A DNA stretch of 36,207 nt from Desulfobulbaceae bacterium (lineage in GTDB: Bacteria; Desulfobacterota; Desulfobulbia; Desulfobulbales; DAOVSZ01): the NCBI GenBank assembly GCA_030627725.1, contig DAOVSZ010000001.1, positions 1 to 36,207 on the forward strand, written 5' to 3'. A model generated the notes under the pieces. The model did no database searches. It worked only from the letters and a program-made list of their open reading frames with translations, and had not been told where the DNA came from. The translations under genes and the position numbers were made by a program. Positions 7,753 to 27,537 of the stretch are shown in pieces (the stretch's first letter is position 1; every line of letters starts with the position of its first letter).

Positions 7753-7783
7753 GTCCGTCTCGCAAAAAAAGCGCGAGACGGAC
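7753..7783 (-). other. perfect 11-bp hairpin in the ilvB 5' leader, function unknown
   Basis: GTCCGTCTCGC (7753-7763) pairs with GCGAGACGGAC (7773-7783) across a 9-nt A/U-rich loop, about 33 nt upstream of the ilvB ATG. Neither strand has a U-tail after the hairpin. Confidence 0.5.
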
Positions 7784-7939
7784 GCGTTAACCGCCTCTAT
7801 CTTATTGAAATCATTGAAGACGAATTCAGCGATTTCGACTTTTTACGAGGTTATCAATATTGCGGAATTGTTCAACAAAGCGTTGCAAACTACGAAAGGC
7901 TTTGAGAGTCTCACGAAAAAGAAAAATATATAGTAATAA

Positions 7940-8806
7940 TTAAGATTTTGTCAACACGTTTTCACAACTTAGGGCAACCGGGAGTGAAGATCTGGGAAAA
8001 ACTCCGGCCTCTTCGCCTCTCTGGAGAAATTCGATAACAGCAGCGAACCCTTCCTGACCAAGGTCCTCGGAAAAAGAATTCACATAAAGACCGATATGAC
8101 TCCGGATTACATCATCTTCCATTTCCTGAGCATGTTTTTTTATGTATGACATGGCGAGATCAGGATGCGCAACGGCCCAGGTGACACTTTCTCTAATCGC
8201 GGCATCGATCCGGCAGAGGAGGTCCTTTCCCAGCGATCGTTTGGCGGCGATTCCTCCAAGAGGGACAGGAAAACCGGTATGGTCCTCCCACCAGGAACCG
8301 AGGTCACAAATGAGTTTCAACCCATATTGCTGATAGGTAAAACGGCTTTCATGAATAATGACGCCTGCGTCAACTTTTCCGCTCGAAACCGCCGGCATGA
8401 TCTCATCAAAGCGCATAATCTCAATATTCCTGCATTCAGGCGCATAGAGATTTAACAGCATTGCCGCAGTGGTATACTTTCCTGGAACGGCAATCTTCTT
8501 TTCAGAAAGATCGCCATCACTCTCTTTTGCCACCAGCAAAGGACCGCAGCCCCGGCCAAGGGCGCTGCCCGAGGTAAGCAGGGTGTAAGTGTCCCGGACA
8601 TGACCAAAGGCATGAAAAGAGAGCTTTGTAATATCGAGCCGGGCCTCAAACGCCCACAGATTCAGGGTCTCCACATCTTCGAGAACAGGATGATCAAACG
8701 CAAACCCTCCGTCTTTCAGCTTGCCGTGGAGCAGCGCATAAAAGATGAACGTATCATTAGGACACGGGGATATGCCTAAAGAGAGGTTTTTCTGGTTTTC
8801 CGACAT
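7940..8806 (-). CDS. mqnD: 1,4-dihydroxy-6-naphthoate synthase (futalosine pathway)
   Basis: 288 aa. The N-terminus LSLGISPCPNDTFIFYAL is typical of MqnD (VitK2_biosynth family). It is adjacent to an MqnB-like gene. Confidence 0.85.
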   Translation of the reverse strand: MSENQKNLSLGISPCPNDTFIFYALLHGKLKDGGFAFDHPVLEDVETLNLWAFEARLDITKLSFHAFGHVRDTYTLLTSGSALGRGCGPLLVAKESDGDLSEKKIAVPGKYTTAAMLLNLYAPECRNIEIMRFDEIMPAVSSGKVDAGVIIHESRFTYQQYGLKLICDLGSWWEDHTGFPVPLGGIAAKRSLGKDLLCRIDAAIRESVTWAVAHPDLAMSYIKKHAQEMEDDVIRSHIGLYVNSFSEDLGQEGFAAVIEFLQRGEEAGVFPRSSLPVALSCENVLTKS

Positions 8807-11650: not shown

Positions 11651-12991
11651 ATGCAAAACCATTACGGACACAGAATCCAATCAGTGACGGAACTGACAAG
11701 TTCTATCAAAGGTCTGCTTGAGACATCCTTTCCCTTTGTCACTGTTGTTGGTGAAATATCTAATGTAAGGCGTCCCTTTTCTGGCCATATCTATTTCACC
11801 ATGAAGGACCACGTCTCTCAGATCCGGGCTGTACTTTTCAAGCCCCAGCAGCGTTATCTGGCCTGTACCCCTGAAGACGGCCTTGAGGTTATCTGCCGCG
11901 GCCGCATCTCGGTCTACGAACCGCGAGGCGAGTATCAGTTCATTGTTGATACGGTTGACTTCAAAGGGACCGGCGCCCTGCAGATCACCTTTGAAAAACT
12001 CAAAAAACGTCTTGCCGAAGAAGGTCTCTTTGATGAGGCATCTAAAAAGCCTCTTCCTTTTCTGCCTGAAAAAATCGCCCTTATAACCTCGCCCGGCAGC
12101 GCTGCAATATTTGATTTTTTGACCATGGCGGAGAACCGTTTTTCTTCCGTGCCTGTCGAGATACATCCGGTCCGGGTCCAGGGCGACGGCGCGGCAGATG
12201 AAATAGTCGACGCCATAGAGTGCGCCAACGACAGAAAGACATCAGACGTCATCGTCATCTGCCGAGGCGGCGGTTCGATAGAAGACTTATGGTCCTTTAA
12301 CGAAGAAAAGGTCGCCCGTGCCATCTCTCATTCAACAATCCCCGTGGTCTCTGCAGTCGGCCATGAGGTGGATTTTACCATTGCCGATTTTGTTGCCGAC
12401 CTTCGGGCGCCGACACCGACTGCTGCTGCAGAAGCCGTCCTCCCCTCTCGGCAAACACTCTCTCGACAACTCAACGAGACAACTATACGGCTTGCAACAG
12501 CGATCAAAAATAAGCTTATCCAGGCACGCTCGCAGACAAAAACAGCACGGCGTATGCTGGGGGACCCGACACGTCTTCTGGCCCATTATTATCAGGTCCT
12601 TGACCACTGCCAGTCTGCCATGGTCCAGTCGTTTACAAACCGTCTCTTAAACCGCAGGCTGTTGGTGACACAACTGACAGGAAGGCTCATAGAACACACC
12701 CCGGGGCACAGAATCGTGAAGAACCGTCAGCATCTGGATGAACTGATCAACACACTGAAGACCTCCACACAGATGCATCTTGAACGGAAACAGGCAAAAC
12801 TGCATACATCCGCCTCACTGCTCGAGGCAGTGAACCCGCGGGCAATACTCAAACGTGGATATTCCATTGTCAGGACTGGAGAAAAGGGTGAAATTGTCAC
12901 TTCCAGCGAACAGGTCGGCAAGGGAGACGGCCTGAATATCCTCCTCCACAAAGGCAAGATAGCGGCAACAGTAAATCGCTGTGAGGATTGA
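11651..12991 (+). CDS. xseA: exodeoxyribonuclease VII large subunit
   Basis: 446 aa. It has an N-terminal OB fold (VTVVGEISNVRRPFSGHIYFTMKD), the catalytic core (ITSPGSAAIFDF, RGGGSIEDLWSFN, VSAVGHEVDFTIADFVAD) and a long helical tail. Confidence 0.95.
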   Translation: MQNHYGHRIQSVTELTSSIKGLLETSFPFVTVVGEISNVRRPFSGHIYFTMKDHVSQIRAVLFKPQQRYLACTPEDGLEVICRGRISVYEPRGEYQFIVDTVDFKGTGALQITFEKLKKRLAEEGLFDEASKKPLPFLPEKIALITSPGSAAIFDFLTMAENRFSSVPVEIHPVRVQGDGAADEIVDAIECANDRKTSDVIVICRGGGSIEDLWSFNEEKVARAISHSTIPVVSAVGHEVDFTIADFVADLRAPTPTAAAEAVLPSRQTLSRQLNETTIRLATAIKNKLIQARSQTKTARRMLGDPTRLLAHYYQVLDHCQSAMVQSFTNRLLNRRLLVTQLTGRLIEHTPGHRIVKNRQHLDELINTLKTSTQMHLERKQAKLHTSASLLEAVNPRAILKRGYSIVRTGEKGEIVTSSEQVGKGDGLNILLHKGKIAATVNRCED

Positions 12992-12992
12992 A

Positions 12993-13060
12993 CCGTTTAA
13001 GCCGCTTGAACCGCTTGAAATGTTTGAACTGTTCCCTCTTTCTGCCTTCTCACTTCTGCC
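12993..13060. repeat. short tandem repeats downstream of xseA: a 9-mer array, then TTCTGCC-type heptamers
   Basis: The 9-mers are ccgtttaag ccgcttgaa ccgcttgaa atgtttgaa (12993-13028). The heptamers are ttctgcc ttctcac ttctgcc (13040-13060). Confidence 0.6.
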
Positions 13061-13081
13061 TTACCCGTTAACTCTTCTGAC

Positions 13082-13111
13082 TTGACAGACCTTCAACAAT
13101 TCATTTAAAAT
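13082..13111 (+). promoter_or_regulatory. sigma70-type promoter candidate for the binding-protein/kinase operon
   Basis: TTGACA (13082-13087), an 18-nt spacer, then TAAAAT (13106-13111), about 55 nt upstream of the 13165 ATG. Confidence 0.45.
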
Positions 13112-13164
13112 AAAATTTATGAAATAAAGTCAATACGTTCTCTACCGATCTGAGGTAATATGAG

Positions 13165-14295
13165 ATGAAAAAAAAACGTTTTTCCCCAGTTTTACTGAGC
13201 ATTATTCTCCTCCTTCTGACTGTCGGGTGCGGAAAACAAACTGACGAAAAGCTGCCTCTCCTGCGTGTCGGCCATGCACTGAACGACCATCACGCGCCGC
13301 TCTTTATTGCTGCCTTAAACCCTGATTATTTCAAAAAAAACGGCGGAATATATCTTCGAGAGGTCGAGTTCAGGAAAAAGTATGATCTCATCCATAACGA
13401 CCGTATCGTTGCCGAGGTCCGATTTGACTCGGGAAGGGGAGGCAGAAAGCTTGTCAGCAGACTCATTACCGGAGAGGCGGACATGGTCCTGGGCGGCATC
13501 CCGTCCGCTCTTCATTTTATTGATCAGGGAGGACCTCTGCGTATCCTGTCACCGGTGATGACGAACGGCACCTCGCTTATACTCAGAAACGATCTTGCGG
13601 CAGACACCTGGGACGAGTTCATCGCGTATGCGCGCACGACAAAGACCCCCCTTATCATCGGCTACAAGGCTGCCATCTCTACCCAGAACCTGATCTTTGA
13701 AACCGCACTCAAAAATGCAGGGATAGCGTACAGCAAGCAAATCGACAACCAGACTGTGCCGATCACCCTGGTCAATATGTTCGGCCCGCAGAACCTGGTC
13801 CCATCCATGAAAAACGAACTCATTGACGGCTTTGTCTGCAACCAGCCCTTTCCAGCCATGGCAGAAACGGACGGGATCGGCAAGACCATCGTCCAGCTCA
13901 GTGAACTCCCGCCCAAAGGACAGTGGCGCGGCATTCCCTGCTGCGGCCTCATTGCTACGGACTCCTTCACCAGGGCCCAGCAGGAAACATCCCGGCTTTT
14001 TGCAACCCTTCTTATGCGGGCGAACCTCTTTATTAACACAAACCAGCCGACAGCCATCTCACAGGTCTCAGGCTGGCTCAACCATCCGGCTGCAATAGAA
14101 GAACGCTCTCTTCCAACAATCAATTTTCTGATTGATTATGACGAGGCATGGACACGCGGGACCAACTTCTGGGTCAAATCAATGGTTGAACTCGGGAAAC
14201 TCAACAACAGGGTCAGCGCAGCCTATCAGGAGGGGACCTTGGAAAAACTTATCTACGACATGGACCTCTACAAACAGGCAAGGGACCAGATCTGA
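13165..14295 (+). CDS. periplasmic solute-binding lipoprotein, NMT1/SsuA-like (COG0715-type) fold, with no cognate permease or ATPase gene
   Basis: 376 aa. It has a signal peptide with lipobox LLLTVGC. The type-II binding-protein-like pattern includes LRVGH..HHAPLFIA and GEADMVLGGIPSAL. Its stop overlaps the kinase start (TGATG at 14293-14297). Confidence 0.85.
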   Translation: MKKKRFSPVLLSIILLLLTVGCGKQTDEKLPLLRVGHALNDHHAPLFIAALNPDYFKKNGGIYLREVEFRKKYDLIHNDRIVAEVRFDSGRGGRKLVSRLITGEADMVLGGIPSALHFIDQGGPLRILSPVMTNGTSLILRNDLAADTWDEFIAYARTTKTPLIIGYKAAISTQNLIFETALKNAGIAYSKQIDNQTVPITLVNMFGPQNLVPSMKNELIDGFVCNQPFPAMAETDGIGKTIVQLSELPPKGQWRGIPCCGLIATDSFTRAQQETSRLFATLLMRANLFINTNQPTAISQVSGWLNHPAAIEERSLPTINFLIDYDEAWTRGTNFWVKSMVELGKLNNRVSAAYQEGTLEKLIYDMDLYKQARDQI

Positions 14296-17200
14296 TGATA
14301 CTTTTAAAAGACAGCAGCATTAAAACCAAGATGCTGGTCGGGACCTCTGTCCTGACATTTTTCTTTCTCCTTGCCCTGGGTGTTTATCACATCACCGTGC
14401 AGATTGTAAATAAGGGTTTTCTCCATGTCATTCATCACGAGCAACAGATAATCAGGAAGGCAACGGAAATAAACACACATATCATTCTAAGCCGTCAGGC
14501 TGAAACGAATTTTATCCTGGACAACGACAGCAGACACCTTGCCCTGGTTGAAAAGCATATAGGAAACATCCTTCAAATCAACCAGACTCTCCAGCAAACC
14601 GCTACAGAAACACATGCACGGCAGGTCCTGGCCATAGCAGAAAGGATTCCGGCCCGCGCCAGGGAGTACTTCTCGACCTTCACAAAGGTTGTTGAGGCGC
14701 ACAAAGTCGTTGGTCATGACAACCGATCCGGGCTGAAAGGCGCTCTGGATGAAACAGCCCTTGTTCTGCTCGAAATAATCAGGACCTACGCACTGGAGGA
14801 CGCAATCGGCTCCATTCATATTCCTTCTTCACTTGCCCTTGCCCTTGAAATCAGAAGAAACGAAAAAGATTACCTCCTTTACCGCAAAAAAGAAGATGTC
14901 CGGAAGACCTATGAGACAATTGACACACTACTCGCCTCTCTTCTTACCGCAAAGCTGCCCCGTGAGCTTGTCGCTCCGATCAGGGCCCAGATCGATCTCT
15001 ACCGGCAGGCCTTTGACGAGCTTGTTGCCAAGGAAAAACAAATTGCTCTTCTCTCGTTTCAGTTAAAAGATGCGGCAGCAGAGATCGAAAACGACGCCAG
15101 CTATATCGTTGCCGCTGCCATCAAACTCGAGGACCAACAGATTCTGGCAACCCAGGAGCGTGCAAAGAAGATGACTCAGGCCGCACTTGCCTTCTGCGCC
15201 ATTGCTCTTTTTGCCGGACTTGTCCTGTTCCGCGGCATCACCAATGCCATAACCGGCCCTCTTCATGCCGTAATCGATAAGATAAAAGGGATCTCGGAAG
15301 GTGACTACGAAACCAGAGCGCCGGTTGATTCAAAAGACGAAATCGGCCAGCTGGCCGAGGCGTTCAACCAGATGGCCAAATCGCTGCTTGACGTAACAAA
15401 TATCTGTGAAGCCGTCTCCAGAGGCGAGTTCGAGCATTCCTTTCACATACGAGGGGAAAAAGACAGGCTTGGAAGCGCGGTCAACCGCATGGCGGAGAAT
15501 CTCACGACCGTCATCCGGCAGGCTGATTCGGTTGCCAAGGGTGATTATGAGGTGCAGATTACTCCATACTCGGACAAGGACGAACTCGGCGCCGCCTTAA
15601 AGGACATGATACTGCGGCTCAAAACCATGCATACGGCAAACCTGAATGCCCTGACGGAAGCACAACTTCTCGCCGACAACCTCGACAGCCTGCCCGTGCC
15701 GACCCATACGGTTGACCTCAACTTCCGAATTACCTATATCAATGCCGCCGGCGCGGCCATGGCCGGCCTGCCCCGTTCCGAATGCGAAGGCCGTTATTGC
15801 TACGAACTCTTCGGCAATGAACATTGCCGCACCGACAACTGTGCCGTTGCCCGGGCCAAGCTGGAAAACAGAGCGATCGTCTCGGAGACCGTGATCGAAA
15901 AGGGCGACACAAAAATCCCCATCCGCTATTTCGGCTCTCCCATGGTTGACGATTCCGGAAAAATCATCGGCGCCCAGGAGTGCATGCTCGACATTACGGA
16001 GATACGCCAGGCGCTCGATCAGACACTCTTTGAAAATCGCCTGCAGGAAGGCCATGCCGCGATCAACGAACGGTTGCGGGGCGAGCAGGACATAGAAGAA
16101 CTTGGCCACAGCATCCTCTCCGCCCTGTCCGAACAGCTCGATATTCAGACCGGCGCCGTGTACCTTGCTGACGAAGATCAACTGCTGCGACTGACCGCTT
16201 CCTATGCGACCGCAAAAGACCAGCCCCATAGAAAATCTTTTTCAATCGGGGAAGGCGTCTCCGGTCAGGCTGCACAGGAAGGAAAAAGGATCATGATCAA
16301 CGATATCCCGGACGATTGCATCCGTCTTGTCACCAGTACTGCCGAGGCTGTGCCGAAGAACATCGCTGCTCTGCCTCTCCGTTATGAAAACTCCCTCAAA
16401 GGGGTGTTGGAACTCGGGTCCTTTACGACATTTACCGAAAAGGACACGGCGCTCCTCGACCGGATAACCGATGACATCACAATTGCGATCCATACGGCCC
16501 AGTCCAGGTCCAGGATAAATCAACTTCTCGAAAAATCACAGGTCCAGTCTGAAGAACTCCAGACGCAGCAGGAGGAACTGAAAGCGACAAACGAAGAACT
16601 TGAAGAACAGACCCAGAACCTGCGTGAGAGCGAATCCCTTTTAAAAAACCAGCAGGAGCAGCTGCAGGCAATAAACGAGGAACTGGAAGACAAAACCGAC
16701 CGTCTTGAACACCAGAAGAGTGAGATCGAGCGAAAAAACGAAAACCTTCAAAAGGCACGAGGCGCACTTGAAAAGAAAGCGGAACAGGTTGCTCTGGCCA
16801 GCAGATACAAATCCGAGTTTCTGGCAAATATGTCGCATGAGCTCCGCACACCCTTGAACAGCCTGCTCCTGCTTGCCCGTAATCTCTCCCGTAACAGGGA
16901 CAACAACCTGACCGAGCAACAGGTGGAATCTGCACATATCATCTATAACAGCGGCAATGATCTCCTTCAGCTCATTAATGAAGTCCTCGACCTTTCCAAA
17001 ATCGAGGCCGGGCGGATGGACGTTGCCAGAAACAAAATTTCCCTGGCAGACCTGTCCCACTGGCTCAAGAGAAACTTCAAACACCTGCTTGACGAGAAGA
17101 GTCTTGATTTTTCCATCACAATTACGCATGAGGCTCCGCCTTCCATAATTTCCGACCGCTATCGGCTGGAACAGATCATCAGAAACCTGATGGCAAACGC

Positions 17201-18854
17201 CTTGAAGTTTACGCAAGAGGGAGGAGTTTTTGTTCGGATCGCGCCTGCTGACAAGAATGCAGATCTTACTGCTGTTGGGCTTACCCCGGAAAAAACACTG
17301 ACCATAAGTATCCGGGACACCGGCATCGGCATATCGCAAGAAAAGCATAAGGAAATATTTCAAGCATTCAGACAGGAAGACGGAAGCACCTCCAGAAAGT
17401 ACGGCGGCACCGGTCTTGGACTTTCCATCTCCAAAGAGCTTGCCGCCCTTCTTGGCGGTGAACTGCAGCTGACCAGTGCTCCTGAATCCGGCTCCACCTT
17501 CAGCATCTATCTGCCGTATACAATGCCTGAAAAGGTTGAAACCGAGGACACGGACACAGCCGAAACAGAGGATGACAGCGACAGAATTGACAGTGGAGAA
17601 TTTACCGTTCAGGATGATCTGCAGCCACCAATTTCCCTTGCCCCCCCTCTTCCGGATGACAGAGACAACCTGCTGGAAAATGACAAGGTCCTGCTGATTG
17701 TTGAGGATGATTTGAACTTTGCCAAAGTCCTCTTCCGTCAAGGCCATGAAACCGGGTTTAAATGTCTTGTTTCAGCAGACGGCAGGGATGGTCTCACCCT
17801 GGCAAGAAAATGTATTCCGAATGCGATCATCCTTGACATTAAACTTCCATCCATGGACGGATGGAAGGTGCTGGAATCGCTCAAGACCGACCAGCATACG
17901 AGGCATATCCCGGTCCACATGATGTCGGTTGAGGAACGGACCGTTGATGCCTATAAAAAAGGCGCGGTCGGCTTTTTGACCAAACCGGTCAAACAGGAGC
18001 AGCTCCAGGAAGCCTTTAACCGTTTTGACCATATTATCTCACGGGACTTAAGCGAACTTCTGCTGGTAGAGGACGATGAAATCCTATCGGCTGAAATTGC
18101 CAAACTGATCGGCAACAGTGATGTCCATATTACAACGGCAACATCTGGGAAAGAGGTGCTTGCGGCATTTAAGGAGAAAAAATTCGACTGCATGATCCTC
18201 GACCTGGGGCTCCCGGACATGACCGGCATAGAGTTGCTTGATATGCTTGAGAAAACAGCCGGCATCAAGATCCCGCCGGTTATAGTTTACACCGGCAGAG
18301 ACCTTACCAATGAGGAAGGTTTGATTTTAAACCGCTACACCGACTCGGTCATCATCAAGGGAGTCAAGTCGGAAGAGAGGCTCCTTGATGAAACCGCCCT
18401 TTTCCTCCACCGGATTGTTGACAACCTGCCGGACGAGAAGAAGATGATGATAGCAAACCTCTATGAACAGGACGAGATGTTCAAGGACAAAAAAATCCTT
18501 CTCGTTGACGATGACATGCGAAATTCTTTTGCCCTTTCAAAGATCATGGAAGAACGCGGCATGCACGTCATGATCGCAAATAACGGCCGGCACGCGCTTG
18601 ACATAATCGCACAGGAATCTGATTTTGATCTTGTACTCATGGATATCATGATGCCGATCATGGATGGATACGAAGCAATACGAAACCTGCGAAAAGACAC
18701 CCGGTTCAGGAATCTGCCGATCATAGCGCTCACCGCCAAGGCAATGCCCGAAGACAGAGAAAAATGCATGCATGCAGGCGCCAACGACTACCTTGCCAAA
18801 CCGGTGGAAGAGGGCAGACTCTTTTCCATGATGCGGGTGTGGCTGTATCGGTAA
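14295..18854 (+). CDS. hybrid sensor histidine kinase
   Basis: 1519 aa, with this domain order:
- TM helix, about 270-aa helical periplasmic domain, second TM helix
- two or three HAMP repeats (DEIGQLAEAFNQMA; DRLGSAVNRMAENL; DELGAALKDMILRL)
- a PAS domain containing a Cys4 motif, then a GAF domain (AVYLADEDQLLRL...GEGVSGQAAQEGKRIMI)
- a coiled coil
- an H-box (FLANMSHELRTPLNS) and G-boxes (DTGIGI, GGTGLGLSI)
- three REC domains, each with the DD pair and the phospho-acceptor Asp (ILDIKLPSMDG, ILDLGLPDMTG, LMDIMMPIMDG). Confidence 0.95.
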   Translation: MILLKDSSIKTKMLVGTSVLTFFFLLALGVYHITVQIVNKGFLHVIHHEQQIIRKATEINTHIILSRQAETNFILDNDSRHLALVEKHIGNILQINQTLQQTATETHARQVLAIAERIPARAREYFSTFTKVVEAHKVVGHDNRSGLKGALDETALVLLEIIRTYALEDAIGSIHIPSSLALALEIRRNEKDYLLYRKKEDVRKTYETIDTLLASLLTAKLPRELVAPIRAQIDLYRQAFDELVAKEKQIALLSFQLKDAAAEIENDASYIVAAAIKLEDQQILATQERAKKMTQAALAFCAIALFAGLVLFRGITNAITGPLHAVIDKIKGISEGDYETRAPVDSKDEIGQLAEAFNQMAKSLLDVTNICEAVSRGEFEHSFHIRGEKDRLGSAVNRMAENLTTVIRQADSVAKGDYEVQITPYSDKDELGAALKDMILRLKTMHTANLNALTEAQLLADNLDSLPVPTHTVDLNFRITYINAAGAAMAGLPRSECEGRYCYELFGNEHCRTDNCAVARAKLENRAIVSETVIEKGDTKIPIRYFGSPMVDDSGKIIGAQECMLDITEIRQALDQTLFENRLQEGHAAINERLRGEQDIEELGHSILSALSEQLDIQTGAVYLADEDQLLRLTASYATAKDQPHRKSFSIGEGVSGQAAQEGKRIMINDIPDDCIRLVTSTAEAVPKNIAALPLRYENSLKGVLELGSFTTFTEKDTALLDRITDDITIAIHTAQSRSRINQLLEKSQVQSEELQTQQEELKATNEELEEQTQNLRESESLLKNQQEQLQAINEELEDKTDRLEHQKSEIERKNENLQKARGALEKKAEQVALASRYKSEFLANMSHELRTPLNSLLLLARNLSRNRDNNLTEQQVESAHIIYNSGNDLLQLINEVLDLSKIEAGRMDVARNKISLADLSHWLKRNFKHLLDEKSLDFSITITHEAPPSIISDRYRLEQIIRNLMANALKFTQEGGVFVRIAPADKNADLTAVGLTPEKTLTISIRDTGIGISQEKHKEIFQAFRQEDGSTSRKYGGTGLGLSISKELAALLGGELQLTSAPESGSTFSIYLPYTMPEKVETEDTDTAETEDDSDRIDSGEFTVQDDLQPPISLAPPLPDDRDNLLENDKVLLIVEDDLNFAKVLFRQGHETGFKCLVSADGRDGLTLARKCIPNAIILDIKLPSMDGWKVLESLKTDQHTRHIPVHMMSVEERTVDAYKKGAVGFLTKPVKQEQLQEAFNRFDHIISRDLSELLLVEDDEILSAEIAKLIGNSDVHITTATSGKEVLAAFKEKKFDCMILDLGLPDMTGIELLDMLEKTAGIKIPPVIVYTGRDLTNEEGLILNRYTDSVIIKGVKSEERLLDETALFLHRIVDNLPDEKKMMIANLYEQDEMFKDKKILLVDDDMRNSFALSKIMEERGMHVMIANNGRHALDIIAQESDFDLVLMDIMMPIMDGYEAIRNLRKDTRFRNLPIIALTAKAMPEDREKCMHAGANDYLAKPVEEGRLFSMMRVWLYR

Positions 18855-18862
18855 ACCTTCTT

Positions 18863-19690
18863 ATGAACAAAAAAGAGATCGAAGATATTGAGATCCATCT
18901 CCTGCTGGAGGCGATCTCAAGACGATACGGATACGATTTCAGGAATTATGCCCAGGCCTCCATGAAACGGAGGATAAAACATGCCGTGGCTCATCTTGAG
19001 TGTGAGGGGATAACCGAACTCACAGGGAGACTCCTTTATGACGAGTCCTTTTTTCAGGATCTCGTGCAAAAATTCAGCATCCCGGTCACGGAGATGTTCC
19101 GGGACCCGGAGGTATATCGGGGCTTGCGGAAAGAGGTGGCCCCCTATCTTGCAACCTATCCCTTTCTCAAGGTCTGGCATGCCGGTTGCGCTACCGGCGA
19201 GGAGGCGTATTCCATCGCCATCCTTCTAAAGGAAGAAGGCCTGTACAACCGGACCACCATCTATGCCACGGATTTTAACGAAGCCGCCCTGAACACTGCC
19301 AAAAAGGGTATTTATCCGATTGACCGTTTCAAGGAGTATAACACCTCATATTTTGAATCAAGCGGAACCAGAAGCCTTTCGGAATACTACCAGGCCGAGT
19401 ACGACTCCGTGATCATGTCTCAGACGCTGAAAAATAACCTCACCTTTGCCAGACACAACCTGGTGACGGACGAGTCATTCGGTGAGATGCACCTCATACT
19501 GTGCCGTAATGTCCTTATCTATTTCAACCAGGAACTCCAAGACAGGGTCCTCAATCTCCTCAGCAAAAGCCTTATCAGGGGTGGCTTTCTCTGCCTCGGC
19601 GCCAAGGAGACTCTGCTGGGTTCTTCTGTTCAAGACCAGTTTGCCGGATTTAACAAGAAACTGAATATTTATAGAAAAAAAATCGAATGA
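18863..19690 (+). CDS. cheR: CheR-type protein-glutamate O-methyltransferase
   Basis: 275 aa counted from MNKKEIEDIE (ATG 18863, 8 nt after the kinase stop). Motifs VTEMFRDP, VWHAGCATGEEAYSIAILL and CRNVLIYF are present. The longer track ORF from 18764 would overlap the kinase. Confidence 0.9.
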   Translation: MNKKEIEDIEIHLLLEAISRRYGYDFRNYAQASMKRRIKHAVAHLECEGITELTGRLLYDESFFQDLVQKFSIPVTEMFRDPEVYRGLRKEVAPYLATYPFLKVWHAGCATGEEAYSIAILLKEEGLYNRTTIYATDFNEAALNTAKKGIYPIDRFKEYNTSYFESSGTRSLSEYYQAEYDSVIMSQTLKNNLTFARHNLVTDESFGEMHLILCRNVLIYFNQELQDRVLNLLSKSLIRGGFLCLGAKETLLGSSVQDQFAGFNKKLNIYRKKIE

Positions 19691-19759
19691 ACGCCGAAAT
19701 TGTGAAACTGTAATAACGGATGGAGAAGGCACTCGTTATTTAATAACTATATCAAAAGG

Positions 19760-19789
19760 TTGACAACTTCGATTATCAGCAAATATACT
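19760..19789 (+). promoter_or_regulatory. near-consensus sigma70 promoter for the REC-kinase-REC gene
   Basis: TTGACA (19760-19765), an 18-nt spacer, then TATACT (19784-19789). AAGGAG lies 6 nt before the ATG at 19835. Confidence 0.5.
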
Positions 19790-19834
19790 CATCTGTAGGA
19801 TTGACATTTATTGCATGATGGCAAGGAGAAAAAC

Positions 19835-21405
19835 ATGCCGAACACCAGGGCAAAAATACTCATAGTCGATGACCGCCTGGAAAACATCCGCGCCCTTGAG
19901 ATAACCCTCCAGCAACTGGACATCGATATCTACAGCGCCCTCTCCGGAAATGCGGCATTAACCCTGATGGTCACGCATGATTTCGCGGTGGTGCTCATGG
20001 ACGTCCAGATGCCCGGCATGGACGGCTTTGAAACCGCCTCATTGATGCAGCACAACAGGCAGACCAGAAATATTCCGATCATCTTCATTACAGCGATCAG
20101 CAAAGACGAACAGCATATCTTCAAAGGATACCAGTCAGGGGCTGTTGATTATCTCTTCAAACCGATCAACGCGGACATCCTCCTCTGCAAGGTAAATGTC
20201 TTTCTGAAACTCTATGAAACCAGGATTGAATGCGAAATGATGCAGGAGGAAGTAAACCGGTCGAAGAACCTTGAATCCTTAGGGATTCTTGCCGGCGGCA
20301 TTGCCCATGACTTCAACAACCTGCTCACCGCCATTTTCGGCAATATCGAACTTGCCAGAAAATTCAGTGTCCCGGGTGGCAAGGCGGAACTGCTGCTTCA
20401 GAATTCTTCAACCGCCATCGACCGGTCAAGGGAGTTGACCAAGCAGCTCTTGACCTTCTCAAAGGGAGGCACGCCTATTAAGCGTGCCACCTCCATCACC
20501 GCACTGATAACCAATGCCTGTTCCGCCTTTCAGGCCAGATCTTCCTCCAACGTCACCATTAACATCCCGCAAGATATCCGGTCGACCAAAATAGACACGG
20601 AGCAGATTTCTCAAGTCTTTCACAGTATGCTCGTGAATGCGGATGAGGCCATGCCGGAGGGGGGGAAATATCAATAACAGCAGAAAATGTAACTATCAAT
20701 CCAAACAGCGCGCTCCCTCTCAAACAGGGAAAATATCTCAAAATCACCATGTCGGACACCGGCCCCGGAATCCCGGAAGAGATTGTCGGCAAGATCTTCG
20801 ACCCGTATTTCTCAACCAAGCAACAGTGTTCCCAGAAAGGCCTGGGACTCGGCCTGGCAATCTGTCACTCGATTATAACAAGGCATGGAGGCTGTCTGCA
20901 GGCGGAATCGGAAAAAGGACGCGGGGCAGTGTTTTATATCTATCTCCCGGCGATAGAGATAGAACCCCTGGCGGGTTCTGAACAGGCGGCGCTAGACTCC
21001 ACACCATACGCACCATCGAAAAGAGGACCAAAACGCATACTTCTGATGGACGATGAGGAGTTCATTATCCAGGTCACCGGTGATATCCTGGAATCCCTTG
21101 GATACGACTACGAGTCCGCCCGCAATGGAGAAGAGGCGCTCAAGCTCTTTATTGAGGCCAAAAAAGAACGGAGACCCTTTGATGCCGTTATCCTTGACTT
21201 GAGTATCCGGAAGGGAATGGGCGGGACTGAAACGATTAAACGAATGCTGAAAATCGACAAATATGTCAGGGCAATCGTTGCGAGCGGATACAGCGAAGAC
21301 GATGTCATGAAAAATTTCCGCGATTACGGTTTTCTGGCAGCCATTGCCAAGCCATTTGACATCAACGGGCTGGAGGATGCGATTAAGCAAATTTTGGACA
21401 AATAA
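19835..21405 (+). pseudogene. REC-HisKA-HATPase-REC hybrid kinase interrupted by a frameshift in a G7 run
   Basis: Frame A (19835-20677) encodes REC (ILIVDD...VLMDVQMPGMDG) and the H-box (GIAHDFNNLLTAI), and ends ...NADEAMPEGGKYQ*. A second frame continues without stops from about 20656 as EISITAENVTI...MSDTGPGIPEE...GLGLGLAI (HATPase) plus a C-terminal REC (ILLMDDE...ILDLSIRKGMGG), ending at 21405. Adding one G to the G7 run at 20659-20665 restores a single ORF of about 523 aa. Confidence 0.85.
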
Positions 21406-21499
21406 CTACGTAAATAAAAAAATATAAATAAGTAATTACAGACCAGAGAGATAAACTCTCAGAATGGCGCGGCTAAGAATCTGATAAGGACCCCACATT

Positions 21500-21700
21500 A
21501 TGGATGAAAAGTCCGATCTGGACAAGTACAAAGACCTCTTTAAAAACTTTGGAGTGCGATACGACCTGTTTCATTATACCGACCAAAGATGGATCGTCAG
21601 GGTATCGGACGATTCTCCCGCTGTAACAGGCTCCCCGGGAACCGGATGGGACGCCGAATTCACCAAAGAAGGTAAATTCATCCAGATCCTGATACGCTAG
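21500..21700 (+). CDS. small hypothetical protein (66 aa)
   Basis: The ORF has a protein-like charged/aromatic composition, and AAGGA lies 9 nt upstream. The overlapping minus-strand 78-aa ORF looks less protein-like. I recognised no motif. Confidence 0.4.
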   Translation: MDEKSDLDKYKDLFKNFGVRYDLFHYTDQRWIVRVSDDSPAVTGSPGTGWDAEFTKEGKFIQILIR

Positions 21701-21796
21701 GTGGTTCATAGTTCAACGTTCAAAGTTGTCCCTAAAACCCGGAACCTGGAACCCGGATTTGCTGATGACAAATGATAAATCCCCAAGGAGAAAGCT

Positions 21797-22459
21797 ATGG
21801 ACGCTCTTGAATGTATCAAAACACGGATGAGTATCCGAAAATTCAAATCCGACCCAGTGCCGAAAAACATTCTGATGGAGGTTGTAGAGACGGCAAAATG
21901 GAGCCCGTCTTATAAAAATACGCAGCCCTGGGAGGTCATTATCCTTTCCGGCGCAGCCAAAGAGTCCCTTTCGAAAATGATGCTCGACCTGCTTGAAAAG
22001 GGCACGGAAAAATGCCCGGATATTCCGGAACCAGGCCCATGGCCCAAGGCCCAGCAGGAGAGAATCGCGGAACTGGTGCAAAGCAGAAAGGAAAAATTCG
22101 GCATCGATCTGGGTGACCCAAAGATCATCATCCAGGCCAAAAAGGTGAATTTCAACTTCTACGGCGCCCCGCATGCGATCTACCTCTATCAGGACGCCTC
22201 TCTTTCACAATGGTCGCTCTTTGACATCGGACTTTTTGCCCAGTCCCTGATGCTCGCGGCCCATGCATCAGGCCTTGGCACCGTGCCTCAGGCCTTTGTG
22301 ACTGACTATTCACGGGAGATAAAGCAGTTTTTGTCCCTGCCTGAGACAAAACGGATCGTCCTCGGATTATCAATCGGCTACCCGGACATGGAAGCCCCGG
22401 CAAACTCGATGCGGACCACACGGGTGAAAACAGAAGAAATCGCGGCCTGGGTTGAATAA
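21797..22459 (+). CDS. nitroreductase-family FMN oxidoreductase
   Basis: 220 aa. It has R.S.RKF (TRMSIRKFKSDPV) and SPSYKNTQPWEVII. AAGGAG lies upstream of the ATG. Confidence 0.9.
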   Translation: MDALECIKTRMSIRKFKSDPVPKNILMEVVETAKWSPSYKNTQPWEVIILSGAAKESLSKMMLDLLEKGTEKCPDIPEPGPWPKAQQERIAELVQSRKEKFGIDLGDPKIIIQAKKVNFNFYGAPHAIYLYQDASLSQWSLFDIGLFAQSLMLAAHASGLGTVPQAFVTDYSREIKQFLSLPETKRIVLGLSIGYPDMEAPANSMRTTRVKTEEIAAWVE

Positions 22460-22514
22460 CCCATTCTTCTTCCCTTGACTTTGCAGAACTGTCCATCATA
22501 CCATCAAAAGTATA

Positions 22515-25433
22515 ATGAACGGCGATCAAACCGTGGGAAATAAAGCAGGTTCAGCAGAACTATCAGCCGCAGACCGCTTGCTGGCAATTATCAGACAGCT
22601 TGTTGTCGAGCTGCAACCCCACTCCCACGACCTCCTTCTTATTACCCTTGACAGTTCACTGGACCGGGACCTGGGCCTTGACAGTCTGACCCGTGTGGAA
22701 CTTCTGGCCAGACTCGAAAATGCCTTTGATATCTCCCTGAGCGAACAAGTCTTGACCACAGCGGAAACACCCCGCGATTTCCTGCGGGCCGTGCTTGGGG
22801 CAGGCAGCAGAATCAGAGGGGCTGTTCCGGCTGAAGCAGACAAGGTGCAGCCGCTTGTTGCGGAAACCGTGCCGCACAATGCGGCAACCCTGGTTGAGGT
22901 ATTGAAATGGCACGTTGCGGCCCATCCGGACCGCCCCCATATCCGGCTGTACAACGATGAGGATGAAGGAGAGGTTATCACCTACGGAGACCTCTGGCAG
23001 GGCGCTGAACAGGTCGCATGCGGCCTGCAGCGCCATGGTGTTTCCTGCGGCGAATCCGTGCTCATCATGCTGCCCACCGGCCGGGATTATTTCATGAGCT
23101 TTTTCGGCATCCTGCTGGCAGGCGGGGTGCCGGTGCCGGTTTACCCGCCCGGTCGCATCAAGCAGATCGAAGAACATCTGCACCGGCATGCAGCCATTGC
23201 CGCCAACAGTCTGGCCCTCTTGATGATTACCATGCCTGAGGCGAAACAGTTTGCAAGGCTGATGCATCAGAAGGCGGCCGGCCTGAAGAAGATAGTAACC
23301 TTTGAAGAAGTGGCAATTGAAGCCGATTCGACGCAGACCGTAAGGCTCCCTGCCCTTGGCGGCGATGATACCGCCTTTCTTCAATACACTTCAGGCAGCA
23401 CCGGCATGCCCAAGGGCGTGGTCTTAAGCCATGCCAACCTGCTGGCCAATGTCCGGGCAATGGGCAGGGCGGTTGAGGTCACATCACGTGACGTTTTTAT
23501 CAGCTGGCTGCCGTTGTATCACGATATGGGACTGATCGGCGCCTGGTTCGGCAGCCTCTATTACGCCTGCCCCCTGATTGTCATGTCACCCCTTGCCTTT
23601 ATAGCCCGGCCGGCACGCTGGCTTAAGGCCATTCACCGTTATCGCGGCACCTTGTCCGCCGCCCCCAACTTTGCCTATGAACTCTGTCTGCGGCGGGTTG
23701 ATGACAAGGATATTGAAGGCCTGGACTTGAGTTCATGGCGGTGCGCCTTTAACGGCGCCGAGGCGGTAAGTCCTGCCATCATTCTCAAATTTTCCGAACG
23801 TTTTGCTCGTTTTGGTTTCCGCCCCGAAACCATGATGCCGGTTTATGGTCTTGCCGAATCATCGGTCGGTCTGGCCTTTCCGCCCCTGGGCCGGGGACCG
23901 ACAACAGACCGGATCAAGCGGCAGGAACTGATGGCCTCGGGCAAGGCAATAGTTGCTGCCGCCTCGGAGAACAAGGCGCTTACGCTCGCCGGATGCGGCC
24001 GGCCGCTGCCAGGTCATCAGATTCGCATTGTTGATGATGCAGACCGGGAACTTCCGGACAGGCAGGAGGGCCGGCTGCAGTTTAAAGGGCCCTCATCCAC
24101 CAGTGGTTATTTCAGGAACCCGGAGAAAACCGGCAGCCTCTTTCACGGCCAATGGCTCGATTCCGGTGATATGGCCTATATCGCTGACGGTGAAGTATAT
24201 ATCACCGGTCGCAGCAAGGATATTATCATCCGGGCAGGCCGTAATATTTATCCTGAAGAACTGGAAGAGGCGATCGGAAAAATCGAGGGAGTGCGCAAGG
24301 GCAACGTCGCAGCGTTCGGCAGCATCGATCCCGACTCTGCCACGGAACGCTTCATTGTGCTTGCTGAAACCAGAAAACGAAGCCCTGATTCCTTGCTGGA
24401 TTTACGGGTCGCCATCAATACGGTTGTTAATGATCTCACCGGCGCCCCTCCTGATGAAGTCGTGCTGGCGCCGCCCAATACCGTGCTCAAGACTTCGAGC
24501 GGCAAGATACGGCGTGCTGCCAGCCGAGAGCTTTATGAACGCGGCGAGATCGGCAGACCGCAACGGGCCGTGTGGCTGCAGGTGGCCCGTTTCTTCTTTA
24601 CTGCCGCCATGCCGCAGATACGGCAGTTTAAGCGACGCGTGGCAGCATCGGCTTATGCCGCATACAGCTGGCTCCTGTTCGGCCTTGCCGCCCCGTTGGT
24701 CTGGATCCTGACGGTTGCGCTTCCTGTAGAGTCCTGGCGCTGGAGCTCTTTGCGTGTGATTCTGCGGGCTGTCTTTCGTCTGGCAGGCGTAAGGATAAAG
24801 GGAGAAGGACTTGATAATTTACCAGGGCCTGCCACCCCTTGTGTCCTGGTGGCAAATCATGCCAGTTATCTTGACGGCATTGTCCTGTCAGCCCTGCTGC
24901 CCTGTTCTTTAAGTTTTGTCGCCAAAGCAGAGCTTCAAAAGTCTTTTTTTGTCCGCACCGGGTTACAGCGGTTAGGCACTGAGTTTGTCGAGCGTTTTGA
25001 GCAGCGGAAAGGGGTCGAGGATGCGAAGGCGCTTATGGAAAGAGGCCGGGCCGGCCGAACCCTTTTATTTTTTGCAGAAGGGACCTTTATGCGGATGCCC
25101 GGTCTGCTGCCGTTCCGGCTGGGCGCCTTTGAGACCGCGATCAAAGGGAATCTGCCGGTGGCGCCGATCGCCATAAGAGGCACACGTTCGATCTTGCGTG
25201 CAGAGTCCTGGTTTCCAAGGCACGGCTCAATCAACGTGCTTGTTGGGGAACCGGTGCAGCCGGAAGAATTTTTACGGAAGGCAAATAGCGATCATTTCAC
25301 CGCAGCCCTGATGTTGCGGGACGAGGTGCGGGCATGGATTTTACGCCATACCGGCGAGCCTGATCTCGCGCATGAACATCCGCCGCTGTCAACCGACGCT
25401 CATCCTCCTGATATAAAGGCAGGATCGACCTGA
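22515..25433 (+). CDS. tri-domain fusion: acyl carrier protein, fatty acyl-AMP/CoA ligase, TM segment, and PlsC-type lysophospholipid acyltransferase
   Basis: 972 aa. The domains are:
- an ACP phosphopantetheine site (DLGLDSLTRVELLARLE)
- an adenylation core (LQYTSGSTGMPKGVVLSH, YGLAESS, TGDMAYI, GRSKDIII, SSGKIRR)
- a hydrophobic segment (AYSWLLFGLAAPLVWILTVALPV)
- acyltransferase motifs (NHASYLDG, FFAEGTF, VAPIAIRGT). Confidence 0.9.
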   Translation: MNGDQTVGNKAGSAELSAADRLLAIIRQLVVELQPHSHDLLLITLDSSLDRDLGLDSLTRVELLARLENAFDISLSEQVLTTAETPRDFLRAVLGAGSRIRGAVPAEADKVQPLVAETVPHNAATLVEVLKWHVAAHPDRPHIRLYNDEDEGEVITYGDLWQGAEQVACGLQRHGVSCGESVLIMLPTGRDYFMSFFGILLAGGVPVPVYPPGRIKQIEEHLHRHAAIAANSLALLMITMPEAKQFARLMHQKAAGLKKIVTFEEVAIEADSTQTVRLPALGGDDTAFLQYTSGSTGMPKGVVLSHANLLANVRAMGRAVEVTSRDVFISWLPLYHDMGLIGAWFGSLYYACPLIVMSPLAFIARPARWLKAIHRYRGTLSAAPNFAYELCLRRVDDKDIEGLDLSSWRCAFNGAEAVSPAIILKFSERFARFGFRPETMMPVYGLAESSVGLAFPPLGRGPTTDRIKRQELMASGKAIVAAASENKALTLAGCGRPLPGHQIRIVDDADRELPDRQEGRLQFKGPSSTSGYFRNPEKTGSLFHGQWLDSGDMAYIADGEVYITGRSKDIIIRAGRNIYPEELEEAIGKIEGVRKGNVAAFGSIDPDSATERFIVLAETRKRSPDSLLDLRVAINTVVNDLTGAPPDEVVLAPPNTVLKTSSGKIRRAASRELYERGEIGRPQRAVWLQVARFFFTAAMPQIRQFKRRVAASAYAAYSWLLFGLAAPLVWILTVALPVESWRWSSLRVILRAVFRLAGVRIKGEGLDNLPGPATPCVLVANHASYLDGIVLSALLPCSLSFVAKAELQKSFFVRTGLQRLGTEFVERFEQRKGVEDAKALMERGRAGRTLLFFAEGTFMRMPGLLPFRLGAFETAIKGNLPVAPIAIRGTRSILRAESWFPRHGSINVLVGEPVQPEEFLRKANSDHFTAALMLRDEVRAWILRHTGEPDLAHEHPPLSTDAHPPDIKAGST

Positions 25434-26239
25434 AATGTATCAAACTGCACGAGGTTATTCGCGTTGATGACCATGTGCAGCTTCCGGATATACTCGTCAC
25501 CCTGTTCACTGTACTTTGTGAGATATCCGGAAAGTTGCCAAGGGTCTGTCAGTGAAACCCGGGCCTTGCGAAACTCTTTATACGGGCCTTTTGCAAGGGT
25601 AAGGAAATAATCGTCTACGGATTCTATGAGTGAGGCGTATTTTTTTACGTAAATCACTTTACCGTCCCGTGTTTCCCTGGCACGGACCCGTGCTTCGTCA
25701 TCCTGGAACGACCAGATCCCAAAGACATTATTGGCGTTTCTGAAAAACCGGGACGCTCCCCATCCGGTTTCAATCGCTGCCTGGGCCAGGACAATACTCG
25801 TGGGGTGGACCTGCATCTTCCGTAAGAGTTCGTCGTAATCCCCGGCCTTGAATCTTTTCATCTGCCGGTCAAGATATGACTTTTCAGCGTCCGTCAGATG
25901 GTCTTTCCGTAAAAACGCAAGCACCCTTTCACGCTGCCTCAAGAGTTTATGTTTACTTATCAGAACTGCCGGGAGCAGGAGATCAAAAAACTTCTTTTTC
26001 TTCTCTCCTACCTGAAGACCCTCAAAAGAAACAACATTGGTGTAGGCAATGGGAGGGACCCTGGTTCCGCTCAGAGACCGTATATCCTCCGGCGTGCTGA
26101 TAGACTGATAGAGGATTTGCAGACCCTCAACCCTTGAAATGACAGGTGGCCGATGCATGACCAGAAGAACCGACACCACAACGATAAGAATACATATCTC
26201 GCAAACCGCTATGATGTACGGTCGTCTTTTTTTATCCAT
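25400..26239 (-). CDS. Bax-like membrane-anchored N-acetylglucosaminidase-domain protein
   Basis: 279 aa with an N-terminal TM helix (YIIAVCEICILIVVVSVLLV). The glucosaminidase-type motif is LAQAAIETGWGASRFFRNANNVFG. Its 3' end overlaps the convergent fusion gene by 34 nt. Confidence 0.8.
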   Translation of the reverse strand: MDKKRRPYIIAVCEICILIVVVSVLLVMHRPPVISRVEGLQILYQSISTPEDIRSLSGTRVPPIAYTNVVSFEGLQVGEKKKKFFDLLLPAVLISKHKLLRQRERVLAFLRKDHLTDAEKSYLDRQMKRFKAGDYDELLRKMQVHPTSIVLAQAAIETGWGASRFFRNANNVFGIWSFQDDEARVRARETRDGKVIYVKKYASLIESVDDYFLTLAKGPYKEFRKARVSLTDPWQLSGYLTKYSEQGDEYIRKLHMVINANNLVQFDTFQVDPAFISGG

Positions 26240-26405
26240 GAATGAAAGGGGGATCCATTTTCGGCAGATCCAGGCTTATTGTTTGAGTATCAGCCTCGAT
26301 GTATGCAGAACGGAATTCCTTAATCAAAATCTTACGGGAAGCAAGATCAAGGCGGGAATAGATGGGGCTCAGTTTCAGGATTTCTATTGCTTCTTCTTCA
26401 GACAT
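26232..26405 (-). CDS. candidate 57-aa small protein overlapping the Bax-like start
   Basis: My own translation is MSEEEAIEILKLSPIYSRLDLASRKILIKEFRSAYIEADTQTISLDLPKMDPPFIHG*. A purine-rich tract (aagaagagaaagaa) lies directly upstream. The stop overlaps the downstream ATG (cATGGATAA). It falls below the 60-aa cutoff of the ORF track. Confidence 0.3.
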   Translation of the reverse strand: MSEEEAIEILKLSPIYSRLDLASRKILIKEFRSAYIEADTQTISLDLPKMDPPFIHG

Positions 26406-26625
26406 TTCTTTCTCTTCTTTTTGTTTAAAAAAAGCTTAACCAAATACATTATATTTTGCCAAGGATTTTCTGACATTGTTGTCTTAATTCTTCAAAAGAA
26501 TGCTCTTTTTTATCCCCACAGAGTTCATCGTTTCTGTGAGGAATTTTATGTCCTACTTTTTTTTGCAATTTCGATGCCGAAGCTACCAAAAAACCTATAT
26601 TCCGCTTGCATAAAGGAATACAGAG

Positions 26626-26641
26626 AGGCGCTGCCTTTGCA
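26626..26641 (+). promoter_or_regulatory. sigma54-type (-24/-12) promoter candidate
   Basis: AGGCGC-N5-TTGCA matches TGGCAC-N5-TTGCW in the GG and GC elements with exact spacing. It lies about 208 nt upstream of the PAS gene. No enhancer-binding protein gene is in the window. Confidence 0.2.
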
Positions 26642-26848
26642 TCTCAAATCTAACGCCGGAGAAACACATCAGTTTCTGGACACAACCTCACCAGAAAATG
26701 TCGGGACAAAGGCCTCAAATCCCAACCTGAATTGTCCATTATTAATAAGAATACACAAAATTCTGCGTGATACAGTTGCGATAAGCTTGAATCTTAGGGT
26801 ATCTTGTTATGTATTATTTTGTTATCGGTCGGAAAGGAACGCTGATCA

Positions 26849-27526: not shown

Positions 27527-27537
27527 GGAGGTGTAAG

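Follow-up and report, generated by a model that had tools for sequence, protein, structure and literature searches.

Among the described systems in which a binding protein serves signalling, TorT/TorS and LuxP/LuxQ each pair a transporter-free periplasmic binding protein, of the type I ribose-binding-protein fold in both TorT and LuxP, with the periplasmic domain of a hybrid kinase to which it reports. The class II binding-protein fold too has been recruited from transport to signalling, as in the AioX/AioS/AioR (arsenite) and NasS/NasT (nitrate) systems: the aioX gene adjoins the kinase gene aioS, and its product, a member of the phosphonate-binding family that binds its ligand via a cysteine, has a plain kinase and a sigma-54 regulator as partners; NasS, a cytoplasmic sensor protein resembling NrtA, acts with an RNA-binding antiterminator. 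From another direction, CheR/CheB pairs are found in many genomes and clusters without a chemotaxis function. One such pair, encoded by cfcB and cfcC, lies in the cfcABCDE cluster of Pseudomonas putida, where it has no chemotaxis role; there, cfcA encodes a CHASE3/GAF hybrid kinase, the product of cfcD has a receiver (REC) domain, and the orphan REC-GGDEF-EAL regulator CfcR forms the output (PMC4951495; for the cfc cluster with CfcR see also bioRxiv 10.1101/2024.11.25.625174). Our literature search found no paper giving a substrate for this Cfc CheR. Here, we analyze a four-gene cluster of a Desulfobulbaceae bacterium of the sulfate-reducer type (positions 13082-21405, all genes in the same orientation) in a 36,207-nt stretch of contig DAOVSZ010000001.1, the whole of which we call the window. 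To judge from the neighborhoods of its homologs, the cluster is a rare junction of two separately conserved modules, one joining a binding lipoprotein to a membrane sensor, the other joining a hybrid kinase to a CheR methyltransferase and a second kinase. We incline somewhat to the reading that the two form one signalling pathway, in which the lipoprotein docks on the kinase, CheR methylates a leucine zipper of that kinase, and a phosphoryl relay leads to a regulator encoded outside the window.

The features of the cluster, in order, are:

13082-13111, plus strand: promoter-like site TTGACA-18-TAAAAT, 5' of the binding-protein gene (11/12 sigma-70 consensus match only)
13165-14295, plus strand: orphan solute-binding lipoprotein, 376 aa, of the NMT1_2 family (Pfam), with a class II fold like that of NrtA, SsuA, and TauA (AlphaFold2, AF2, and Foldseek)
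14295-18854, plus strand: hybrid sensor histidine kinase, 1519 aa (Pfam; a ~100% identical copy, P0026, occurs in an independent assembly)
14400-15182, plus strand: periplasmic all-helical sensor domain of the kinase, residues ~36-296 (hydropathy, relatives, and a low-confidence AF2 model)
15237-16493, plus strand: input region of the kinase, with HAMP 315-365, two HAMP-like repeats, PAS 463-571, and GAF 597-733 (Pfam; the extra repeats by eye from the sequence)
16548-16799, plus strand: leucine-zipper linker of the kinase, residues 752-835, 12 heptads (heptad layout), with proposed methyl-accepting sites
16809-17522, plus strand: kinase core, HisKA 839-906 (phospho-acceptor H848) and HATPase_c 954-1076 (Pfam)
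17685-18851, plus strand: three receiver domains, residues 1131-1248, 1253-1375, and 1399-1519 (Pfam Response_reg in three stretches, 4.5e-63)
18863-19690, plus strand: CheR-type glutamate methyltransferase, 275 aa (Pfam CheR_N and CheR)
19760-19789, plus strand: promoter-like site TTGACA-18-TATACT, 5' of the second kinase gene (11/12 sigma-70 consensus match only)
19835-21405, plus strand: second kinase, REC-HisKA-HATPase-REC, 523 aa when intact, split here by a frameshift (Pfam on both fragments; intact in a near-identical assembly, L167)
20659-20665, plus strand: G7 homopolymer causing the frameshift, G8 in the near-identical assembly (sequence comparison)

Much of this content had been recognized in an earlier annotation made from the letters of the DNA without database searches (hereafter the sequence-only reading), and our results bear it out. 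The solute-binding lipoprotein carries a signal peptide with the lipobox LLTVGC and matches the Pfam family NMT1_2 (8.8e-24); its TGA stop overlaps the ATG of the kinase gene as TGATG (14293-14297, a 1-nt gene overlap); the 1519-aa kinase has a helical periplasmic domain between two transmembrane (TM) helices, as judged by hydropathy, Pfam, and the AF2 model; and the CheR gene starts 8 nt past the TAA stop of the kinase. The kinase reads, from its N-terminus, TM1, helical periplasmic domain, TM2, HAMP, PAS, GAF, coiled coil, HisKA, HATPase, and three REC domains, with the H-box FLANMSHELRTP and the receiver acceptor aspartates D1181, D1303, and D1450. The cluster as a whole holds, as had been counted, two kinase cores and five REC domains, and the acceptor aspartate is kept in all five. 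The Pfam scan took in 35 open reading frames (ORFs), namely five cluster products and 30 others, the latter being all remaining non-nested ORFs of at least 150 aa plus an HU gene. None of these 35 matched HPt, CheA, CheW, CheB, MCPsignal, or an output response regulator, and none matched an ATP-binding cassette (ABC) permease or ATPase, which agrees with the absences that the sequence-only reading had listed. None of the four cluster proteins reached the cut-off of an NCBIfam family.

The first module is centered on the lipoprotein. Its AF2 model (predicted local distance difference test, pLDDT, 92.7) retrieved 3un6, CmpA, NrtA, SsuA, TauA, Thi5, and PqqT in Foldseek at 11-18% identity, by which its fold is class II and NrtA/SsuA-like; the ligand is not readable from these fold matches. 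An exact look-up of the protein gave no match, nor did sequence searches of the PDB with it and with the kinase sensor domain, and its close family is small, with 25 matches among 5.8 billion sequences in a word-indexed search. A locus scan restricted to one genome per species returned 80 loci, 40 of which (L001-L039 and L058 in our numbering) hold orthologs at 33-48% identity, in hosts that include Desulfobulbales, Desulfobacter, Desulfovibrionaceae, Chromatiales, Deferribacterales, and Malonomonas. A membrane sensor gene lies directly 3' of the binding-protein gene in 39 of these 40 loci, the 40th ending at a contig edge, and the intergenic gap is between -4 and +7 nt in nearly all 39. These sensors begin with a TM helix and, wherever the sequence suffices, have a second one near residue 250; by class, they comprise 28 histidine kinases (mostly hybrid, two with HPt), three GGDEF-EAL proteins, and seven that are cut or unclassified. 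The periplasmic domains of the sensors (~240 aa) are mutually homologous whatever the output (phmmer down to 1e-37), which argues that the conserved unit is the binding protein together with the periplasmic domain, the output part being variable. At three Chromatiales loci (L004, L034, and L036), the ortholog is coupled to a TM-periplasmic-TM-PAS-GGDEF-EAL protein and not to a kinase; to go by this architecture, the input module is reused there for cyclic di-GMP (c-di-GMP) signalling. The binding protein of the window is, then, probably a co-sensor of its kinase in the manner of TorT/TorS, though not a TorT/TorS homolog, and the co-sensor role proposed by the sequence-only reading gains from the recurrent position of the sensor gene.

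Homologs of the lipoprotein at 32% identity or less (from WOR-3, Planctomycetota, and methanogens) are followed by a gene for a permease of 250-285 aa with 5-6 TM helices, and permease neighbors are confined to this range of identity; the lipoprotein does not group with the transporter-linked proteins. Across this divide, the residues D41-H42-H43 and C259-C260 (window 13285-13293 and 13939-13944) are invariant, in 39/39 sensor-linked proteins and in 24/24 other homologs, methanogen and WOR-3 proteins included. The sensing clade probably retains the ligand chemistry that its transporter ancestors had, and the invariance of these residues suggests a common ligand, possibly thiophilic or a metal.

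The kinase partner has TM1 at about residues 13-35 and TM2 at about 297-319 (hydropathy), with a periplasmic domain of ~260 aa between them that is all-helical in a single-sequence AF2 model of residues 1-370, albeit at the low confidence of a pLDDT of 48.9. A word-indexed search with residues 1-330 (14295-15284) gave no matches although the identical P0026 is in the same database, so that negatives of this search are unreliable for short divergent helical domains. An exhaustive search of representatives, in turn, recovered 635 relatives of the periplasmic domain at E<1e-3; of the best 60, 55 carry MCPsignal, and a few weak matches to 4HB_MCP_1, CHASE3, or TarH were seen. The periplasmic domain is, by these relationships, a member of a mainly chemoreceptor family. 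At this point, one may ask if the lipoprotein instead serves an ABC importer as its binding subunit, the genes for the membrane parts lying elsewhere, with the kinase sensing alone by its chemoreceptor-type domain. The lipoprotein does have the fold and family of NitT/TauT transport binding proteins, its candidate ligand residues are identical in the transporter-linked homologs, and the same sensor domain occurs in a chemoreceptor (L169) and in another kinase (L168) that have no binding protein encoded beside them. We nevertheless regard an importer subunit as very unlikely: no permease or ATPase was found in the 36 kb of the window, the gene next to the orthologs is that of a sensor and not of a permease in all 39 evaluable loci, with the two genes overlapping or nearly touching, and the pairing survives the swap of the output between kinase and GGDEF-EAL.

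The second module emerged from the kinase itself. A search with the full-length protein delineated a distinct group at E<1e-187, with 35-56% identity from the GAF domain to the receivers, whose members carry differing sensors (NIT, CHASE3, 4HB_MCP, and poly-HAMP) and come from Thermodesulfobacteriota, Bacteroidota (Niastella), and Xanthomonadales. Another 80 loci with this kinase core came from a metagenome scan. The order of the window recurs exactly at L081 (kinase, CheR, REC-kinase-REC) and with variations at L082 (CheR, CheB, kinase, REC-kinase-REC) and in Niastella (L084: kinase, CheR, CheB, REC-PAS-kinase); CheR adjoins the kinase in L087 and others as well. More generally, a REC-kinase gene lies 3' of the family kinase in 47 of the 61 loci with at least 2.5 kb downstream, and CheR and/or CheB adjoins the kinase in 32 of 52 evaluable loci, with both present in 24 and CheR only, as in the window, in seven. 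These linked CheRs are nearly all 44-62% identical to the CheR of the window, which scores 71 bits against the enterobacterial CheR model of NCBIfam (cut-off 435) and, by sequence, belongs to the kinase-linked group. The gene neighborhoods thus delineated mark the kinase with its private CheR, often a CheB, and a REC-kinase(-REC) protein as a cassette that recurs across phyla. The two modules, each conserved in its own right, are not conserved together: CheR was found within 10 kb at none of the 80 binding-protein loci, and an NMT1_2 binding protein at none of the 86 kinase-core loci examined for it in all. The triad of binding protein, kinase, and CheR, whose synteny the sequence-only reading had put forward for checking, is accordingly rejected as a conserved unit, and it is because of this want of synteny that we view the window as a rare junction of two modules. 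Its surmise that the pathway is 'tuned by methylation' appears reasonable, since CheR is a conserved partner of such kinase cores.

Could the CheR be an ordinary chemotaxis enzyme, acting on chemoreceptors encoded elsewhere and standing beside the kinase by accident? Desulfobulbaceae genomes commonly encode chemoreceptors. The enzyme has the canonical CheR_N and S-adenosylmethionine (SAM) domains, and the sensor domain of the kinase is itself of the chemoreceptor type. Yet CheR, often with CheB, adjoins this type of kinase in the 32 of 52 loci mentioned above, the kinases sampled being from several phyla including Bacteroidota; the linked CheRs form a group of their own, mostly at 44-62% identity to that of the window; the 8-nt spacing after the kinase stop suggests a single transcript; and in P. 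putida the corresponding enzyme takes no part in chemotaxis (PMC4951495, citing Garcia-Fontana 2013). An incidental neighbor hence seems to us decidedly unlikely.

If CheR is a partner of the kinase, a candidate substrate is to be seen in the kinase itself. Residues 752-835 form 12 unbroken heptads with Leu, Ile, or Val at position 4 that run directly into the H-box. The first seven read SEELQTQ, QEELKAT, NEELEEQ, TQNLRES, ESLLKNQ, QEQLQAI, and NEELEDK, and five of these seven have a Glx-Glx pair at heptad positions 2-3 (E753/E754, E760/E761, E767/E768, E788/Q789, and E795/E796), with the pairs of neighboring heptads seven residues apart. The methylation helices of chemoreceptors have Glu pairs in the same seven-residue geometry, and the segment EELKAT fits the classical methylation consensus Glu-Glu-x-x-Ala-Ser/Thr. 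The repeat QQEEL...NEELEE is kept in one to three copies across the kinase family. Scored as the strict motif EEL...N[EQ]EL, it is present in 25 of the 32 evaluable loci with CheR/CheB versus three of the 20 without (Fisher p=1e-5), in 23/30 versus 3/10 after clustering at 80% identity (p=0.018), and in 4/6 versus 1/16 inside the largest clade (p=0.009). Most kinases without linked CheR/CheB read QQKELQQTNEQLAQKA at the zipper instead; this is so in L085 and in a clade of ~2100-aa poly-HAMP kinases (e.g., L140, L153, and L156), which have no adjacent CheR/CheB, keep the downstream REC-kinase-REC gene, and with QQKELQQTNEQLAQKA have lost the Glu-Glu pairs. The link between the motif and CheR/CheB is suggestive, not conclusive.

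On these grounds, we tentatively put forward, as a possibility still short of probable, a class of 'methyl-accepting histidine kinases': the zipper between GAF domain and phospho-acceptor would act as the kinase's own adaptation module, to which a private CheR would write and from which, in most relatives, a private CheB would erase, and this would give a two-component pathway a chemotaxis-style memory without CheA, CheW, or a chemoreceptor, here wired to a dedicated binding protein. Our literature search found no paper proposing the methylation of a kinase. A precedent of another kind is the methylation of the response regulator PhoP at consecutive acidic residues by the CheR of Salmonella (PMC8546571), and the enzyme might by the same token act on the receiver domains of the pathway, or on a response regulator, in place of the zipper. 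Five receivers, each with an acidic pocket, are encoded in the cluster, and seven CheR/CheB-linked kinases do without the strict zipper motif. We consider receivers as the substrate unlikely, though, for they would leave unexplained why the Glu-Glu heptads are kept beside CheR/CheB and degraded elsewhere, as well as the fixed register of the pairs on a helix continuous with the phospho-accepting helix.

Taking the zipper as the substrate and the two modules as one pathway, we infer the following course of events. The lipoprotein would bind a small ligand at a site including the invariant Asp-His-His and Cys-Cys and, once loaded, dock on the helical domain that the kinase, encoded immediately 3' of it, exposes to the periplasm, as in TorT/TorS, LuxP/LuxQ, and AioX/AioS. 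The signal would then travel through the HAMP array, the PAS and GAF domains, and the 12-heptad zipper to the phospho-accepting helix with H848. The adjacent CheR is predicted to methylate the Glu-Glu pairs of the zipper and so to set the gain of the kinase, a form of adaptation or memory for a two-component system; because no CheB is encoded in the window, the reset would have to come from elsewhere or from protein turnover. Phosphoryl groups would pass to the three receivers within the kinase and to the one at the N-terminus of the second kinase, and would end up on a response regulator whose gene lies outside the window. This may be a REC-GGDEF-EAL c-di-GMP enzyme by analogy with CfcA/CfcR and with L168, where a gene for a REC-GGDEF-EAL regulator is followed by that for a 1483-aa kinase with the window-type sensor and EEL repeats, and then by CheR (428-8271 of that locus), an arrangement that looks like CfcR and CfcA encoded together.

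Several observations weigh against this scheme. At its sensory end, the periplasmic domain of the window kinase differs from that of most binding-protein-linked sensors: phmmer ties it to L023 alone among them (4e-33), and its relation to the other 33 is only distant, with an hhalign probability of 92.7% for an alignment that includes the TM helices. The window-type domain is also the one that occurs without an adjacent binding protein in L168 and L169. We have rejected, on this account, the idea that it is the usual partner domain of the binding protein. L023, from Desulfocapsa, has the same arrangement of binding protein and kinase as the window along with the window-type sensor domain, and it is from this locus, the 1-nt gene overlap, and the behavior of the ortholog clade that we infer the docking of the lipoprotein on the kinase. 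In the zipper, the association of the motif with CheR/CheB fades as the sequences are clustered more coarsely (19/26 versus 3/9 at 70% identity, p=0.05; 9/13 versus 2/4 among the 17 clusters at 60%, not significant), three kinases have the motif with no CheR/CheB within 8 kb, and the strict form is missed by the seven linked kinases noted above. At the output end, the 35 ORFs scanned for the window hold no CheB, HPt, or output regulator by Pfam, and GGDEF/EAL genes adjoin only three of ~88 related loci. That the c-di-GMP output is generally encoded beside the cassette is rejected on this count, and a c-di-GMP regulator is for the window cluster possibly the output, and only a lead.

The second kinase needs separate consideration, as its reading frame breaks at the G7 run within the HATPase domain into two pieces in different frames (19811/19835-20677 and 20749-21405). 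The sequence-only reading was right about the near-consensus promoter in front of this gene (an 11/12 match) and about its REC-HisKA-HATPase-REC content; it missed the frameshift, by which the gene is not one ORF here. An independent ENA assembly, L167, is 99.81% identical to window positions 12924-28853 over 15,931 nt, and the sole gap between the two is G8 in L167 for G7 in the window; L167 encodes an intact 523-aa protein from an ATG equivalent to position 19835. Because of this near-identical G8 sequence, and since the window is a contig of a metagenome-assembled genome, the frameshift is most likely a homopolymer error of the assembly, or else a very recent slip. A slippage-prone G run within a signalling gene could also vary in length. 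The literal frameshift, together with the absence of CheB, HPt, and an output regulator nearby, might be taken to mean that the cluster is decaying, with the second kinase a true pseudogene and the pathway no longer functional; against this speak the intact gene in L167, which over 15.9 kb is gapped against the window at the G run only, the intactness of the other three genes with their catalytic motifs kept, and the frequency of homopolymer errors in metagenome-assembled contigs, and we hold a pathway in decay to be highly improbable.

The cluster is set among housekeeping genes, including ilv/leu, asd, and panC, with xseA (11651-12991) before it and a nitroreductase gene (21797-22459) after it. 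Both promoter-like sites lie upstream of a gene on the correct strand; such matches are not enriched across the region (10 versus 8.1 in shuffled sequence). Just past the nitroreductase gene, positions 22515-25433 (plus strand) encode an Aas-like acyl-ACP synthetase/acyltransferase of 972 aa in which PP-binding, AMP-binding, and acyltransferase domains are fused. A 251-aa ORF at 26139-26894 (plus strand), which matched nothing in Pfam and overlaps a glucosaminidase gene at the latter's end, is missing from the gene calls of L167 and is probably spurious. About 5.4 kb downstream of the cluster, a 225-aa protein (26849-27526, plus strand) is made up of a PAS domain alone, without an output domain. 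Farther on, a tRNA gene (29290-29363, minus strand; Rfam 65.5 bits) and a gene for an HU-type DNA-binding protein (29628-29987, minus strand) lie in a gene-poor stretch.

The main value of this locus lies in two ideas, a clade of binding proteins devoted to sensing and a kinase that may itself accept methyl groups. As to the former, a clade of NrtA/SsuA-fold lipoproteins from ~40 genomes, mostly of sulfur-cycling bacteria, is coupled to a membrane sensor in every evaluable case and extends the short list of binding-protein co-sensors by one family; its invariant Asp-His-His and Cys-Cys are a handle for finding the ligand. As to the latter, a concrete candidate substrate is proposed for CheR in the heptad-spaced Glu-Glu pairs of the kinase's own signalling helix. 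If true, adaptation in the style of receptors extends to ordinary two-component systems.

Set beside the known systems, the cluster shares with TorT/TorS and LuxP/LuxQ the transporter-free periplasmic binding protein that would report to the periplasmic domain of a hybrid kinase and, with TorS, an all-helical sensor. The kinship to TorT/TorS that the sequence-only reading implied does not hold: the binding protein is of the class II NrtA/SsuA fold, unlike TorT and LuxP, the periplasmic domain is of a chemoreceptor family, and the Pfam scan of the kinase found no TorS sensor domain (PF21689), no HPt (PF01627), and no LuxQ periplasmic PAS. The NCBIfam TorS model matches the core only, at 334 bits versus a cut-off of 676, and the LuxQ model likewise the core only, far below its cut-off. 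The periplasmic domain of LuxQ is a tandem PAS, whereas that of the window is predicted, at low confidence, to be all-helical, its relatives being helical chemoreceptor domains. Taken as a whole, the earlier interpretation was broadly right in function and wrong on TorT/TorS kinship and on the conserved triad. AioX, whose ligand cysteine recalls the invariant Cys-Cys of the lipoprotein, and NasS belong to systems that differ from the window in having neither a CheR nor a second kinase. The Leptospira LvrA/LvrB pair is alike in joining a hybrid kinase to a REC-kinase 'hybrid response regulator', and the second kinase aligns over nearly the full LvrB model of NCBIfam (117 versus a cut-off of 500; LvrA, 223 versus 1200); the Lvr system has neither a binding protein nor a CheR.

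With chemoreceptors, the cluster has in common the family of the periplasmic sensor, the HAMP domain, a long coiled coil with Glx-Glx pairs at seven-residue spacing, and a CheR of its own; it differs in that MCPsignal, CheA, and CheW are without a match among the 35 ORFs, that its coiled coil leads into the helix of a histidine kinase and not to a CheA-binding hairpin tip, and that it has no C-terminal pentapeptide. The closest studied candidate relative is cfcABCDE, a likeness which the sequence-only reading had overlooked and which is one of architecture only, with no direct comparison to the CfcA sequence. Both have a membrane hybrid kinase with GAF, HisKA, HATPase, and receivers, the H-box ANMSHEL (that of CfcA as taken from a mutagenesis primer in the paper), and a CheR gene after the kinase followed by a receiver-containing gene, with the output regulator encoded elsewhere; CHASE3 relatives (P0036 and P0051) are, moreover, present in the family of the window kinase. 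CfcA differs in sensing through CHASE3 without a binding-protein partner, where the window has a chemoreceptor-type helical domain and a binding protein, and the Cfc cluster has a CheB (cfcC), for which the 35 ORFs scanned hold no match. By this analogy, the window cluster is a Cfc-type cassette without CheB that carries a chemoreceptor-type sensor and a dedicated binding-protein partner.

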